A stretch of DNA of 64,000 nucleotides from Escherichia phage vB_VIPECOMC06. Location: the sequence record PQ416618.1; one strand, written 5' to 3'. A program made the translations under genes and the position numbers. Shown piece by piece: positions 2 to 32,256 of this stretch; positions within the stretch are counted from its first letter, which is position 1, and each line of letters starts with the position of its first letter. The notes beneath the pieces are model-generated. The model saw only the letters and a list, made by a program, of their open reading frames with translations. It made no database searches and was not told the origin of the DNA.

Positions 2-1006
2 AAAGAAGCTCGTTCATTAAAAGCAGAAATCGAAGAAGCTAACGAGCGTCTACTTAATATCGTTCTTGACGAAGACCCTACTGAGGCATTCAACAAGATA
101 GGACAAGAAGCATTCTTGATTAAATCTAAAATTGACTCATATAATAAAGTTATTAAGATGTATCATGATGGTGGTACATGTCCTACTTGTGCATCACAGT
201 TGCACCAGGGTGATCCTATTGTCTCTAAGATTACCGATAAGCTTCATGAATGTAATCACTCATTCGAGCAACTTACCTGTCACAGAGATAATCTGAGTGT
301 CCTAGTGGACGAATATAGAGCTAATGTTAAGACTAAACAGGACCTTGCATCTGATATTCGTACTAAGAAACAAGCAATGATTGCCACTATTGATAAAGCT
401 AAGAAAGTTAAAGCTGCAATAGAACAAGCCTCAGCGGAATTTATCGACCATGCTGATGAGATAGCTTTGCTTCAAAAAGAACTTGATAAAATCATTAAAA
501 CAAAATCGGATATCGTTCTTGAAAAATACCATCGTGGTATTATCACAGATATGTTAAAAGATTCCGGTATTAAAGGTGCTATCATTAAAAAATATGTGCC
601 TCTGTTCAACAAGCAGATTAACTATTATCTTAAAATCATGGAAGCTGATTATGTGTTTTCTATTGACGAAGAATTCAATGAATCTATAAAATCACGTGGT
701 CGTGAAGATTTTAGTTATGCTTCATTTAGTCAAGGTGAAAAGGCACGTATCGATATCGCATTGTTGTTTACATGGCGAGATATTGCTGAAAAGGTCTCTG
801 GTGTTAAAATCAACACTCTGATTCTTGATGAGGTTTTTGATGGTGCTGTCGATTCTGAGGCTGTTAAGGCTATAGATACCATTCTTGGAAGTTTACAAAA
901 TACTAATGTGTTCATTATCTCTCATCGAGACCATGACCCTCAACGTTATGGACAACATCTTCAAATGAGCAAAGTTGGACGATTTACGGTAATGACTGTT
1001 TCATAA
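2..1006 (+). CDS. 46: Recombination endonuclease subunit gp46 (SbcC/Rad50-like ATPase), C-terminal part; 5' end lies upstream of the window
   Basis: Frame is open from the window edge with no stop (track start 116 is an internal TTG). Rad50-type zinc hook CPTC, ABC signature FSQGEKARI, Walker B/D-loop ILDEVFDGAVD, H-loop ISH. Confidence 0.85.
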   Translation, partial: KEARSLKAEIEEANERLLNIVLDEDPTEAFNKIGQEAFLIKSKIDSYNKVIKMYHDGGTCPTCASQLHQGDPIVSKITDKLHECNHSFEQLTCHRDNLSVLVDEYRANVKTKQDLASDIRTKKQAMIATIDKAKKVKAAIEQASAEFIDHADEIALLQKELDKIIKTKSDIVLEKYHRGIITDMLKDSGIKGAIIKKYVPLFNKQINYYLKIMEADYVFSIDEEFNESIKSRGREDFSYASFSQGEKARIDIALLFTWRDIAEKVSGVKINTLILDEVFDGAVDSEAVKAIDTILGSLQNTNVFIISHRDHDPQRYGQHLQMSKVGRFTVMTVS

Positions 1007-3446: not shown

Positions 3447-4010
3447 ATGAACTTATTTGATGATGACGTCCAGCTTAACGAGCACCAAATTGCATGGAAG
3501 TCTAATGACGCTGATGCGATTCAAAAATGTGCTGATATGTTTAAAGAAAAACCTGAGAATGAATTCTTTAAAATCATTAATGCTATTAATGAAAAGAAAT
3601 CTATGTCAATTGCTCAGGTCGACTACTCAAAATTTATGGTTGAGAACTCATTATCCCAGTTCCCAGAATGTATGCCAGCTGTTTACATGATGAACTTAGT
3701 CGGTTCTGAATTAAGTGATGAAGCGCACTTCAACTATATGATGGCGGCAATTCCGCGTGGTCGTCGATTCTCTAAATGGGCTAAACTAGTCGAAGACACT
3801 TCAGAGTTACTAGTTATCAAACTGTTGATGAAACATTACACAATCAACATGAATGATGCTACAGAGTATAAGCGGCTCCTTGAAAAAAATAACAAGTTGC
3901 CAATAGTCCTTAAAGAACTGAAGGCCATGGTCACTGATGAGTTTCTCAAAGAAGTTACAAAAAATGTGAAAGAACAAAAACAATTTAAAAAATTAGCATT
4001 GGAATGGTAA
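3447..4010 (+). CDS. 62: Clamp loader small subunit gp62
   Basis: 187 aa; ATG 2 nt after the gp44 stop; synteny 44-62-regA. Confidence 0.85.
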
Positions 4011-4462: not shown

Positions 4463-7174
4463 ATGAAAGAATTTTACTTAACGGTTGAACAGATTGGTGA
4501 TTCAATTTTTGAACGTTACATCGATTCTAATGGCCGTGAACGTACTCGTGAAGTAGAATATAAACCATCACTGTTTGCTCATTGTCCAGAAAGTCAGGCT
4601 ACGAAATATTTCGATATCTACGGTAAGCCGTGTACTCGTAAGTTGTTCGCCAATATGCGTGATGCCTCCCAATGGATTAAACGCATGGAAGATATCGGAC
4701 TTGAAGCACTTGGCATGGACGATTTCAAATTGGCGTATTTGTCTGACACTTATAACTATGAAATCAAATACGACCATACAAAAATTCGTGTGGCTAACTT
4801 CGACATCGAAGTAACATCTCCAGATGGGTTCCCTGAGCCGGCACAAGCAAAACATCCTATTGATGCTATCACCCATTATGACTCAATTGACGACAGGTTC
4901 TACGTATTTGATCTATTGAATTCTCCATATGGTAATGTAGAAGAATGGTCTATCGAAATTGCGGCTAAGCTTCAAGAACAAGGTGGTGATGAAGTTCCAT
5001 CTGAAATTATCGATAAAATCATTTATATGCCGTTCGATAACGAAAAAGAATTGTTGATGGAATATCTCAACTTCTGGCAACAGAAAACTCCTGTCATTTT
5101 GACTGGATGGAACGTTGAGTCATTTGATATTCCATATGTGTATAACCGAATCAAGAATATTTTTGGCGAATCTACTGCGAAACGTTTATCACCACATCGT
5201 AAAACTCGTGTTAAAGTTATCGAAAACATGTATGGTTCTCGTGAAATCATTACATTGTTCGGTATCTCTGTTCTTGATTACATTGACCTTTACAAAAAAT
5301 TCTCTTTTACCAATCAACCGTCATATTCCCTGGATTACATTTCAGAATTTGAATTGAACGTTGGTAAACTGAAATATGACGGCCCTATTTCTAAGCTTCG
5401 TGAAAGCAATCACCAACGATATATTTCTTATAACATTATCGACGTGTATCGTGTATTGCAAATTGATGCTAAGCGTCAGTTCATCAACTTGAGTTTGGAC
5501 ATGGGTTATTATGCTAAAATTCAGATTCAATCTGTGTTTAGCCCAATTAAAACATGGGATGCTATTATTTTTAATAGCCTTAAAGAGCAGAACAAGGTGA
5601 TTCCACAAGGTCGTTCTCATCCGGTTCAACCTTATCCTGGCGCTTTTGTTAAGGAACCTATTCCAAATCGATACAAATATGTAATGAGTTTCGACCTTAC
5701 ATCTCTGTATCCAAGTATTATTCGCCAAGTGAATATTAGCCCAGAAACAATAGCAGGAACGTTTAAAGTAGCTCCATTGCATGATTATATTAACGCTGTT
5801 GCTGAACGTCCTTCTGATGTGTACAGTTGTTCTCCTAACGGCATGATGTATTATAAAGACCGTGACGGTGTTGTTCCAACTGAAATCACTAAGGTCTTTA
5901 ATCAACGTAAAGAACATAAAGGTTACATGCTTGCAGCTCAACGTAATGGTGAAATAATTAAAGAGGCATTGCATAATCCTAATCTTTCTGTTGACGAACC
6001 ATTAGATGTTGATTATCGTTTCGACTTCAGTGATGAGATTAAAGAAAAGATTAAAAAGTTGTCTGCTAAATCTCTTAATGAAATGTTGTTTAGAGCTCAA
6101 CGTACTGAAGTTGCAGGTATGACTGCCCAAATTAACCGTAAATTGCTCATCAACTCGCTTTATGGTGCGCTTGGCAACGTTTGGTTCCGTTATTACGATT
6201 TGCGTAATGCTACTGCAATCACAACATTTGGTCAAATGGCTTTACAGTGGATTGAACGTAAAGTTAATGAATATCTGAATGAAGTTTGTGGCACAGAAGG
6301 TGAAGCTTTCGTTCTTTATGGTGATACAGACTCTATTTACGTATCTGCCGATAAAATTATCGATAAGGTTGGTGAATCTAAATTCCGTGATACCAACCAT
6401 TGGGTAGACTTCTTAGATAAGTTTGCACGTGAACGTATGGAACCAGCTATTGATAGAGGTTTCCGTGAAATGTGTGAATACATGAACAATAAACAACACT
6501 TAATGTTCATGGACCGAGAAGCTATCGCTGGGCCTCCACTCGGTTCTAAAGGTATTGGCGGATTCTGGACCGGTAAGAAACGTTATGCATTAAACGTGTG
6601 GGATATGGAAGGTACTCGTTACGCTGAGCCTAAACTCAAAATCATGGGTCTAGAGACTCAGAAATCTTCGACTCCTAAAGCAGTACAGAAAGCTCTTAAA
6701 GAATGTATTCGTCGTATGCTTCAAGAAGGTGAAGAATCATTACAAGAATATTTTAAAGAGTTTGAAAAAGAATTCCGTCAATTGAATTATATTAGCATCG
6801 CGTCGGTATCTTCTGCGAATAACATTGCTAAATATGATGTAGGTGGATTCCCTGGTCCCAAATGCCCGTTCCATATTCGTGGAATTCTGACGTATAACCG
6901 GGCTATCAAAGGTAATATCGATGCACCGCAAGTTGTAGAAGGTGAAAAAGTATATGTTCTGCCTTTACGTGAAGGAAACCCATTCGGTGATAAATGTATC
7001 GCATGGCCTTCCGGTACTGAAATCACAGATTTAATTAAAGACGACGTACTTCATTGGATGGACTACACTGTTCTCCTTGAGAAGACATTTATTAAACCAC
7101 TTGAAGGATTCACATCAGCAGCGAAACTCGAGTATGAGAAGAAAGCATCTCTGTTCGATATGTTCGATTTTTGA
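4463..7174 (+). CDS. 43: DNA polymerase gp43 (family B)
   Basis: 903 aa; exonuclease motif FDIEV, polymerase motifs YGDTDS and KKRY; N-terminus MKEFYLTVEQIGDS and length match the RB69-type polymerase as I recall it; RBS aaaggaaatt. Confidence 0.95.
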   Translation: MKEFYLTVEQIGDSIFERYIDSNGRERTREVEYKPSLFAHCPESQATKYFDIYGKPCTRKLFANMRDASQWIKRMEDIGLEALGMDDFKLAYLSDTYNYEIKYDHTKIRVANFDIEVTSPDGFPEPAQAKHPIDAITHYDSIDDRFYVFDLLNSPYGNVEEWSIEIAAKLQEQGGDEVPSEIIDKIIYMPFDNEKELLMEYLNFWQQKTPVILTGWNVESFDIPYVYNRIKNIFGESTAKRLSPHRKTRVKVIENMYGSREIITLFGISVLDYIDLYKKFSFTNQPSYSLDYISEFELNVGKLKYDGPISKLRESNHQRYISYNIIDVYRVLQIDAKRQFINLSLDMGYYAKIQIQSVFSPIKTWDAIIFNSLKEQNKVIPQGRSHPVQPYPGAFVKEPIPNRYKYVMSFDLTSLYPSIIRQVNISPETIAGTFKVAPLHDYINAVAERPSDVYSCSPNGMMYYKDRDGVVPTEITKVFNQRKEHKGYMLAAQRNGEIIKEALHNPNLSVDEPLDVDYRFDFSDEIKEKIKKLSAKSLNEMLFRAQRTEVAGMTAQINRKLLINSLYGALGNVWFRYYDLRNATAITTFGQMALQWIERKVNEYLNEVCGTEGEAFVLYGDTDSIYVSADKIIDKVGESKFRDTNHWVDFLDKFARERMEPAIDRGFREMCEYMNNKQHLMFMDREAIAGPPLGSKGIGGFWTGKKRYALNVWDMEGTRYAEPKLKIMGLETQKSSTPKAVQKALKECIRRMLQEGEESLQEYFKEFEKEFRQLNYISIASVSSANNIAKYDVGGFPGPKCPFHIRGILTYNRAIKGNIDAPQVVEGEKVYVLPLREGNPFGDKCIAWPSGTEITDLIKDDVLHWMDYTVLLEKTFIKPLEGFTSAAKLEYEKKASLFDMFDF

Positions 7175-29127: not shown

Positions 29128-29355
29128 ATGAAACGTCAAATCATTAAAAACGTGACTACTGATTCAAACATCGATGAGTTTGAAGATGTTCTGTTTAATC
29201 CTGATTTAGTTGTTGTACAGAAAAACTGGACCGAATTTTTATGCTACACTGAAGTGGTTTACGTTTATGAAAAACTCGGTGATGAAATGCCTATCTATGG
29301 TATCTTCCGTGAAATCACTGAAAACGGTACAACTTATTGGAAGGAAACTTACTAA
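29128..29355 (+). CDS. Hypothetical protein (75 aa)
   Basis: RBS agaggag upstream. Confidence 0.45.
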
Positions 29356-29765
29356 TGGCTAATAAATTCCGCGTTAACTCATGGTACCAATTTATAGATA
29401 AACGTGCCCAAGAAGAGTTTATTAAAGACCACACTGATAACGGGATTTATGCACGACGTCTTGGCATGGAACCATTTAAAGTATTAGATGTTGACCATCT
29501 TGGTCGTCCTACTAAAATTGTGACATCTACTGGCACGGTTGGATACGCAACAGGCGGTGATATTCTTGATGAAAACTTTATCTGGCTCTCTACTAGTGAA
29601 GCAGAGTTTTTTGACGAAGTGGGAAATCCATATCAAGCGTCTGAAGAGCAAGATTCTGGTGAACTTGACGAATTGACTGAATTTCCTGTGATGACGATTA
29701 CTATCGAAAATAACGACCAGGCATGGTCTTTGTATCAAATGTTGAAAGCACATTTTAAGGAATAA
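29355..29765 (+). CDS. Hypothetical acidic protein (136 aa)
   Basis: ATG 29355 in a TAATG overlap with the upstream stop (track start 29337 is an upstream TTG). Confidence 0.45.
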
Positions 29766-29767
29766 TA

Positions 29768-29947
29768 ATGCCGTTATACGACTATAAATGTCAATCTGAA
29801 GATTGTGGTCATGAATATGAAAAAATTAAAAGGATCTCTGAACGAGAAAACGATGTTTGCCCTGAATGTCATCGTCTGTCTACTCGTCGGGTTTCTGCTC
29901 CTAAACATGTAAATGGTGGTTTTTACGACTTACTTAAGAAGGGTTAA
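29768..29947 (+). CDS. FmdB-like zinc-ribbon protein (59 aa), absent from the ORF track
   Basis: MPLYDYKCQSEDCGHEYEKI...CPECH: Cx4C ... CxxC zinc ribbon; starts 2 nt after the upstream stop and ends 2 nt before the next ATG. Confidence 0.45.
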   Translation: MPLYDYKCQSEDCGHEYEKIKRISERENDVCPECHRLSTRRVSAPKHVNGGFYDLLKKG

Positions 29948-29949
29948 TT

Positions 29950-30375
29950 ATGGCTTTTAAAGGTTTTGAAGTTGGTAAGAAATATCGTATTATCAAAGGA
30001 CAGGAAGATAATTTCTTGAGAATGCTTAATACGACTGGTAAACGTCTTAATACTAATCTGCATACTACTTTATTGTCCAAAGATTTTATTGTAGAAGAGA
30101 TGATTGGTTACGGCGTTTCGATTATTGCTGTAGAAGCCGTAGGCGATTATGGCCGAACTATTCATAGTATGCAAGGTGATATTCTGCTTTATGGTGCAGA
30201 ATTTAAATTCTTTGAAGAAGTTCCGGAACCAGATACAGCTGTCGATTTCAAAAAAGGCTCTGTAGAATTTGTTGATGGTTCGGTGATCGTATCAGGTGAT
30301 GTGGTCATTACAGTTAAAAGTGAACAAGGGCGTTTGGCTGCAATTGATGCACTTCAGAAAATTAAATTTAAATAA
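29950..30375 (+). CDS. Hypothetical protein (141 aa), upstream of gene 39
   Basis: Followed by a clean intrinsic terminator. Confidence 0.5.
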   Translation: MAFKGFEVGKKYRIIKGQEDNFLRMLNTTGKRLNTNLHTTLLSKDFIVEEMIGYGVSIIAVEAVGDYGRTIHSMQGDILLYGAEFKFFEEVPEPDTAVDFKKGSVEFVDGSVIVSGDVVITVKSEQGRLAAIDALQKIKFK

Positions 30376-30392
30376 GGGCTTCGGCCCTTTTT
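30376..30392 (+). terminator. Rho-independent terminator (gggcTTCGgccc plus TTTTT)
   Basis: GC stem with UUCG loop directly after the stop, followed by a 5-T run. Confidence 0.8.
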
Positions 30393-30438: not shown

Positions 30439-32256
30439 ATGATTAAAAATGAAATTAAGGTATTGTCAGATGTAGAACATATTAAGAAACGCAGTGGCAT
30501 GTATATTGGTTCTTCGGCCAAAGAAGCCCACGAGCGTTTTTTGTTTGGTAAATATCAACAAGTTGAATATGTTCCTGGTCTGGTTAAATTAATCGATGAG
30601 ATTATTGACAACTCGGTTGATGAAGCTATTCGTACATCATTTAAGTTTGCAAATAAAATCGATGTGCAAATTAAAAATAATCAAGTTTCGGTGGAAGATA
30701 ACGGACGTGGTATTCCTCAAGGTTTAGTTACTGACCAAACAGGTGAACAAATTCCTGGGCCTGTAGCAGCCTGGACTATTCCAAAGGCTGGCGGCAACTT
30801 TGGCGATGACTCTGAACGCAAGACTGGTGGTATGAACGGCGTCGGGAGTAGTTTAACTAATATCTTCTCTACGTTGTTTACAGGCATCACGTCAGATGGC
30901 GAAAATGAAATCACCGTTAACTGTTCAAACGGAATGGAAAACAAATCATGGTCTTCTAAGAAATCTAAAGGTAAAGGCACTAAAGTAATCTTCACTCCTG
31001 ATTTCTCTTCATTTGAAGAACATAATTTATCTCAAATTTATTTAGATATTACTTTAGACCGACTTCAAACGTTGGCAGTCGTTTATCCTGATATCAAGTT
31101 CACATTTAATGGTAAAAAGGTTGATGGTAATTTTAAACGATTTGCTAAACAATTTGGCGAAGATAACATCATTCAAGAAAATGATAAAGTCTCTATAGCA
31201 TTCACAACATCACCAGACGGCTTCCGTCATTTAACTTATGTGAATAACATCCATACTAAAAATGGCGGTCATCATGTTGAATGTGTAATGGATGATATCT
31301 GCGAACATCTTTTGCCGGGTATTAAAAAGAAATATAAGGGTATTGAAGTCACTAAAGCTCGTGTTAAAGAATGCCTCACAATGTTGATGTTTATTAGAGA
31401 CATGAGCAACATGCGTTTTGATTCTCAGACTAAAGAACGTTTAACGTCAACGTATGGTGATATTCGTAATCATATCCAATTAGATGCTAAGAAAATTGCT
31501 CAGGCACTTCTTAAAAACGAAGCCTTGATTATGCCTATTGTTGAAGCAGCATTAGCTCGTAAATTGGCAGCAGAAAAGGCTGCAGAAACTAAAGCAGCTA
31601 AAAAGGCAACTAAAGCTAAGGTTCATAAGCATATTAAAGCTAACCAATGCGGTAAAGATGCAGATACGACATTGTTCTTAACAGAAGGTGATTCAGCAAT
31701 TGGTTATCTCATTGATGTTCGTGACCGTGAACTACACGGCGGATTCCCATTACGTGGTAAGGTGATGAATAGCTGGGGTATGTCATATGCTGATATGATG
31801 AAGAACAAAGAGCTCTTTGATATCTGTGCTATCACAGGTCTTATTCTTGGTGAAAAGGCAGAGAATACAAACTATCGTAATATTGCAATTATGACCGATG
31901 CCGATCATGACGGTCTTGGAAGTATTTATCCGGCTTTGCTTGCTTTCTTTAGTAATTGGCCTGAATTGTTTGAACAAGGACGTATTCGCTTTGTTAAAAC
32001 TCCTGTAATTATTGCACAAATTGGCAAAACTCAAAAATGGTTTTATACTGTAGCTGAGTATGAAGAAGCTAAAGATACACTGCCTAAGCATAGTATTCGA
32101 TACATCAAGGGATTGGGCTCCCTTGAAAAGTCAGAATATCGTGAAATGATTCAGAACCCTGTGTACGACGTAGTTAAACTTCCTGAAAATTGGAAAGAAC
32201 TCTTTGAAATGTTGTTGGGTGATGATTCAGAACTTCGTAAAGAATGGATGTCCTAA
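30439..32256 (+). CDS. 39: Topoisomerase II large subunit gp39, unsplit form (GyrB-like GHKL ATPase plus TOPRIM)
   Basis: 605 aa; GHKL motif EDNGRGIP, TOPRIM LTEGDSAIG; continuous through the region that is a separate gene 60 in T4. Confidence 0.9.
   Translation: MIKNEIKVLSDVEHIKKRSGMYIGSSAKEAHERFLFGKYQQVEYVPGLVKLIDEIIDNSVDEAIRTSFKFANKIDVQIKNNQVSVEDNGRGIPQGLVTDQTGEQIPGPVAAWTIPKAGGNFGDDSERKTGGMNGVGSSLTNIFSTLFTGITSDGENEITVNCSNGMENKSWSSKKSKGKGTKVIFTPDFSSFEEHNLSQIYLDITLDRLQTLAVVYPDIKFTFNGKKVDGNFKRFAKQFGEDNIIQENDKVSIAFTTSPDGFRHLTYVNNIHTKNGGHHVECVMDDICEHLLPGIKKKYKGIEVTKARVKECLTMLMFIRDMSNMRFDSQTKERLTSTYGDIRNHIQLDAKKIAQALLKNEALIMPIVEAALARKLAAEKAAETKAAKKATKAKVHKHIKANQCGKDADTTLFLTEGDSAIGYLIDVRDRELHGGFPLRGKVMNSWGMSYADMMKNKELFDICAITGLILGEKAENTNYRNIAIMTDADHDGLGSIYPALLAFFSNWPELFEQGRIRFVKTPVIIAQIGKTQKWFYTVAEYEEAKDTLPKHSIRYIKGLGSLEKSEYREMIQNPVYDVVKLPENWKELFEMLLGDDSELRKEWMS

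Follow-up and report, generated by a model that had tools for sequence, protein, structure and literature searches.

We found that Escherichia phage vB_VIPECOMC06 carries the Mosigvirus copy of gene 39.2 (NwgI), the product of which is, by orthology with phage T4, very probably a modulator of the host chaperonin GroEL. The gene is located at 29768..29947 on the plus strand of the window, which is the whole 64,000-nucleotide stretch of record PQ416618.1 that was analyzed. Its coding sequence starts with an ATG at 29768, ends with a TAA at 29945-29947, and encodes a protein of 59 aa (MPLYDYKCQSEDCGHEYEKIKRISERENDVCPECHRLSTRRVSAPKHVNGGFYDLLKKG). This feature was defined by the open reading frame (ORF), the matches to hidden Markov models (HMMs) above their curated cut-offs, the identity to proteins of phages RB69 and ST0, and the dN/dS values. 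Gene 39.2 is already known, as it is annotated in many related phages and the function of its T4 ortholog has been published. The reality of the gene, the purifying selection, the family assignment, the identity to RB69, and the synteny with T4 come from the present analysis, and the GroEL activity and the deletion phenotype come from the T4 literature.

Orthology with T4 gene 39.2 and local gene order

The 1.6 kb surrounding the ORF has 97-98% identity to the Mosigvirus genomes PHB12, ST0, APCEc01, and phiC120, and the window belongs to a Mosigvirus, an RB69-like relative of T4. The encoded protein is 100% identical to RB69 ORF006c (NP_861696.1; RB69 positions 5972..6151) and to ST0 gp107 (YP_009608396.1), and has 82.5% identity over 57 residues to the 39.2 protein of T4 strain GT7. 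T4 39.2/NwgI and RB69 ORF006c belong to the same length class (58-59 aa), occupy the same slot between goF and gene 39, and have the layout MPLYDYKC...CPxC...SAPKHVNGGFYDLL in common with the protein in the window. Differences from the T4 protein are insubstantial, with the window protein being one residue longer (KKG rather than KG at the end).

The surrounding genes, all on the plus strand, have a similarly conserved arrangement. Upstream of 39.2 are cef (29128..29355) and a goF-like gene (29355..29765), which was assigned based on matches to phrog_622 and to the goF phrogs and on the T4 order of cef-goF-39.2. Downstream is a gene for a 141-aa protein (29950..30375) that corresponds to RB69 ORF005c and, by its order and its match to phrog_622, to the slot of T4 39.1. 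This is followed by gene 39 (30439..32256), which encodes the 605-aa DNA topoisomerase II large subunit in the unsplit 39+60 form and served as the synteny anchor. The order cef-goF-39.2-X-39 is common to the window, T4, T2, RB69, ST0, and VR26, with X being 39.1 in T4. The records of T2, RB69, ST0, and VR26 carry the remark "similar to T4 gp39.2," and the same remark is present in Bp7, for which a shorter stretch was compared and the order is cef-39.2-39.1. Among the phages compared from more distant genera, the homologs in Moon, ECD7, and Miller (Moonvirus, Krischvirus, and Pseudotevenvirus) are located upstream of the topoisomerase gene, and adjoin it in ECD7 and Miller. In Muldoon, for which the 3.2 kb compared stops short of the topoisomerase gene, the homolog is located between exonuclease/MazG-like genes and motB/cef. 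Based on the sequence identity and the kept gene order, the ORF in the window represents the ortholog of T4 gene 39.2.

Two differences from T4 were observed in this region. First, the downstream neighbor of 39.2 is a 141-aa phrog_622 protein in the window, whereas T4 has the 65-aa 39.1. Second, the topoisomerase II large subunit is encoded by one 605-aa gene in the window, RB69, and T2, whereas T4 divides this subunit between genes 39 and 60 and has a mobA insertion and translational bypass.

Both genes that flank 39.2 match phrog_622 (29355..29765, E = 2.8e-39; 29950..30375, E = 1.3e-21), and both also match goF profiles weakly. Judging from these profile matches, a distant paralog of the goF-like type apparently occupies the slot of T4 39.1 in Mosigvirus; a direct BLASTP comparison between the two flanking genes was marginal (E = 0.018 over 17 residues). 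A GC-rich hairpin AAGGGCTTCGGCCCTT followed by a T-run, located at 30374..30389 in the interval that separates gene 39 from the 141-aa gene, is terminator-like on both strands. This arrangement suggests that cef, goF, 39.2, and the following ORF may form a single transcription unit that ends at this hairpin. A scan for sigma-70 promoters found 18 sites, compared with 17.8 in shuffled sequence, and thus no excess, and we therefore assigned no promoter.

Zinc-ribbon core and the phage-type tail

The 39.2 protein belongs to the FmdB zinc-ribbon family. Residues 1-42 match Pfam PF09723 (Zn_ribbon_8) with E = 5e-13 and 49.3 bits (gathering cut-off 34.4), and the extent of this match defines the zinc-ribbon core (29768..29893, plus strand). 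The protein also matches NCBIfam TIGR02605 (FmdB family zinc ribbon protein) with 48.0 bits (cut-off 31.3) and, among the PHROGs, phrog_1076 ("FmdB-like transcriptional regulator"). The N-terminus, MPLYDYKC, fits the FmdB motif MPxYxYxC from residue 1. Two knuckles follow, C8-x4-C13 and C31-P-E-C34, which provide four candidate zinc ligands on the plus strand: C8 (29789-29791), C13 (29804-29806), C31 (29858-29860), and C34 (29867-29869). The Ser/Gly-rich C-terminal tail that gave the TIGRFAM its "SSSS" name is absent, as the protein stops at residue 59; such a tail is a trait of many cellular FmdB members and is demanded by neither HMM.

The original prediction, which was made from the sequence before these searches, had called this an FmdB-like gene and proposed an HMM search, and the two matches above the curated thresholds bear out that call. 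Its description of the layout as CxxxxC near the N-terminus followed by CPxC about 20 residues later is also correct in outline, with the actual distance from C13 to C31 being 17 residues. The layout was said to be typical of the family, which holds for the family assignment but less so for the first knuckle, as the usual FmdB form is CxxC and Cx4C represents a two-residue insertion relative to the Pfam profile. The orthology with T4 39.2/NwgI had gone unrecognized.

Compared with cellular FmdB proteins (PF09723; TIGR02605 CxxC_CxxC_SSSS), the window protein has the same MPxYxYxC start, the same pair of cysteine knuckles with a spacing of about 20 residues, and the same SAP followed by a Gly-Gly-aromatic-Tyr motif. 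The two differ in the first knuckle (Cx4C in the window protein, CxxC in cellular FmdB), in the tail (SAPKHVNGGFYD in the window protein, SAPxFxLKGxGWYxTD(Y/F) in cellular FmdB), and in the long Ser/Gly/Ala-rich C-terminal extension that many cellular members have and the window protein lacks.

For comparison within the family, an exhaustive phmmer search, which covered 1.84 billion representative sequences, detected 252 relatives with E <= 1e-3. Conservation of the motifs was read from an alignment of 20 sequences, and 156 retrieved relatives were inspected further. A phage-type subfamily, whose members are 53-75 aa long and have (S/T)APxx(V/I)(N/H)GG(F/Y)YD as their tail, separates from the cellular FmdB type, and GG[FYW][YF]D is carried by 19 of the 156 retrieved relatives. 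In the alignment, M1, C8, C34, and P45 are invariant within the phage subfamily, and conservation reaches at least 90% at P2, Y4, Y6, R26, C31, A44, G50, G51, and D54. The window protein has the C-terminal motif SAPxxV(N/H)GG(F/Y)YD of the T4 Gp39.2/NwgI orthologs; this signature of the phage 39.2 subfamily is S43-A-P-K-H-V-N-G-G-F-Y-D54 in the window (29894..29929, plus strand). Of the parts of the protein, this tail would be the likeliest to carry its specific function.

Within this phage subfamily, the first knuckle (residues 8-15, 29789..29812) shows unusual plasticity, occurring as CxC, CxxC, CxxH, or Cx4C. In contrast, the second knuckle and the SAP...GGFYD tail hardly vary. Two of the relatives, from Shigella phage vB_SsoM_113 and Salmonella phage Manna (P0007 and P0008), are 47-aa versions that move into the +1 frame after "CP" or "CL" (...NVIVCLLVGLLLLSM). 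Their shifted ends match a 35-aa ORF that overlaps 39.2 in the window (29805..29912, +1 frame). The probable explanation for these frameshifts is either a one-base error in sequencing or a genuine frameshift mutation.

The AlphaFold2 model, for which the 20-sequence alignment was the input, has four beta strands (residues 3-8, 16-20, 28-30, and 37-40) with pLDDT of approximately 82-84 over residues 1-40. The overall pLDDT is 74.8 (moderate), and the C-terminal helix is of low confidence (tail, 54-60). A Foldseek search of this model against the PDB found no significant match (best E = 0.47), with the N-terminal domains of MCM, RbpA, and S27e being among the weak, non-significant top matches. 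A sequence search of the PDB for a solved relative found bL31 only, with an insignificant E > 0.3.

Proposed action on GroEL and alternative functions

In T4, 39.2 is a 58-aa peptide that modulates GroES/GroEL (PMC5153855). Genetic and biochemical data suggest that it pushes GroEL toward an "open" conformation that is able to bind host and phage cochaperonins, and phages with a deletion of 39.2 are completely blocked on specific groEL mutants (PMC5153855); the same account of T4 39.2 and GroEL is given in PMC4396842. Suppression of groEL/groES alleles is likewise known for the T4 protein from the literature. The primary reference for T4 39.2 (NwgI), as cited in both of these articles, is Ang and Georgopoulos (Genetics 190:989, 2012). 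Our literature search found no paper that links RB69, 39.2, and GroEL/GroES. The gene was reportedly first picked up from RB69, and the homologs from T4, RB43, and RB49 are said to have acted alike. If the first selection was indeed from RB69, the protein encoded in the window is exactly the one that was originally isolated.

We infer that the copy in the window would have the same GroEL activity as that of T4. In this proposed mechanism, an early-expressed 59-aa protein with an N-terminal FmdB-type zinc ribbon and the conserved tail would act on the host GroEL and shift it toward an open conformation that is able to bind either GroES or the phage cochaperonin Gp31. GroEL-dependent folding would thus be kept going on hosts with suboptimal GroEL or GroES, and in T4 the folding client would be, above all, the major capsid protein. 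The cochaperonin gene of this phage is located outside of the window.

Gp31 of T4 and CocO of RB49 are encoded by the phages themselves and tailor the host GroEL machine to the folding of phage proteins. The window protein may be likened to them as a phage factor proposed to adapt the same host machine. However, Gp31 and CocO are GroES-like heptameric lids, whereas the window protein, a zinc ribbon of 59 aa, is unrelated to them and would modulate GroEL without capping it.

Two other functions were considered. The protein may be a small zinc-ribbon adaptor that has another host target, either in place of GroEL or in addition to it, such that the GroEL effects of overproduction would be indirect. 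Cellular FmdB proteins have the same zinc ribbon together with GxG(W/F)Y, a related motif, and no groESL was found in the two neighborhoods of cellular FmdB genes that were examined (one with DUF502 and aspS, the other with assorted unrelated genes). The T4 protein is also said to be lethal on overproduction, which would fit such a target. However, the T4 deletion phenotype is allele-specific on groEL mutants and the biochemical data are reported to agree (PMC5153855; PMC4396842). These findings favor a direct link to GroEL, and we consider an indirect effect unlikely.

The label "FmdB-like transcriptional regulator" in RefSeq and PHROGs implies instead that 39.2 acts on DNA or RNA polymerase, and the weak Foldseek matches do include small zinc-containing factors that bind RNA polymerase, such as RbpA. 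These matches are not significant (E > 0.4), and the label itself was inherited from the legacy name "putative regulatory protein." Moreover, no DNA-binding domain was detected, as the Pfam and NCBIfam searches show the zinc-ribbon family only, and the sole experimental work on an ortholog points to GroEL (PMC5153855; PMC4396842). With no experimental support for the label found in the literature searched, a role in transcriptional regulation appears very unlikely. Compared with this label, which is misleading for 39.2, "GroEL modulator NwgI/Gp39.2" is a better name.

Coding evidence, annotation, and the wider family

The conservation pattern indicates that the 39.2 frame is a genuine and strongly conserved gene. 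Homologs of the protein were found by tblastn in 955 phage records, including 134 at identities of at least 99%. Substitutions were counted by the Nei-Gojobori method between the window and six relatives (RB69, ST0, T2, T4, Bp7, and VR26). Compared with RB69 and ST0, there are 5-6 DNA differences and every one of them is synonymous. The dN/dS values are 0.03-0.08 against T2, T4, and Bp7, are not computable against VR26 due to saturation of synonymous sites, and range from 0.01 to 0.11 over all pairs of relatives. The differences are concentrated at third codon positions (e.g., 7/5/25 against T4). This pattern and the low dN/dS values argue that the frame is translated and under strong purifying selection. 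An ORF of 44 aa on the minus strand (29774..29908) that overlaps 39.2 was dropped, as the third-position substitutions fit the plus-strand frame.

The ORF is separated by 2 nt from each of its neighbors, with the upstream stop at 29765 and the downstream start at 29950. A Shine-Dalgarno sequence, AAGGA (29757..29761, plus strand), is located inside the final codons of the upstream goF-like gene with a spacing of 6 nt to the ATG, and the same Shine-Dalgarno sequence is found in T4. The ORF is short (59 codons) and lies within AT-rich DNA that is rich in short ORFs, yet the chance that it is a fortuitous frame is negligible, and this reading is already refuted by the conservation pattern (955 records with homologs, low dN/dS with mostly third-position differences, and a conserved ribosome-binding site), the scores above the PF09723 and TIGR02605 cut-offs, and the genetic phenotype of T4 39.2 (PMC5153855; PMC4396842).

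These results agree with the original prediction in the coordinates, the translation, and the 2-nt distances to both neighbors, and its view that a real small gene had been lost to an ORF-length cut-off is borne out by the HMM scores and the conservation. A lack of conservation in related phages had been named beforehand as a result that would refute the gene, and the number of records and the dN/dS range given above speak overwhelmingly for conservation. The description of the gene as unannotated is accurate for the length cut-off of that first stage only, as the gene is annotated in public records (NP_861696.1, YP_009608396.1, and NP_049623.1). An ORF cut-off of 60 aa thus conceals functional phage genes.

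Several records of 39.2 homologs contain apparent errors. In the T4 reference NC_000866.4 (5702..5839; 3703..3840 of the compared stretch), an extra T is present after codon 44 of 39.2 relative to T4 GT7 (601..777 of its stretch), and several other base differences from GT7 result in E25G and D29G. Consequently, the annotated protein is a truncated version of 45 aa (UniProt Q01434) rather than 58 aa. The record of phage T2 (AP018813.1; 1501..1677 of the compared stretch) names the homolog "kilA: anti-repressor protein," which is evidently an annotation transfer error, and many other records name it "transcriptional regulator" without experimental basis.

An omics study of T4 classified the 39.2 transcript as early and did not detect the protein; the reference on which its proteome analysis relied was the truncated 45-aa version. 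The frameshift in the reference may explain why the protein was missed, and the non-detection is weak evidence because the reference used was truncated and error-bearing. More generally, a reference frameshift that truncates 39.2 can defeat proteomic detection.

For the wider family, phage 39.2 keeps the core of FmdB (the zinc ribbon and SAP...GxG(W/F)Y), and the sole tested member acts on GroEL. On this basis, there is a small chance that the cellular FmdB proteins, a large family labeled "putative regulatory protein," are chaperonin modulators too, in which case the GGFYD-type tail could be the element that contacts GroEL.
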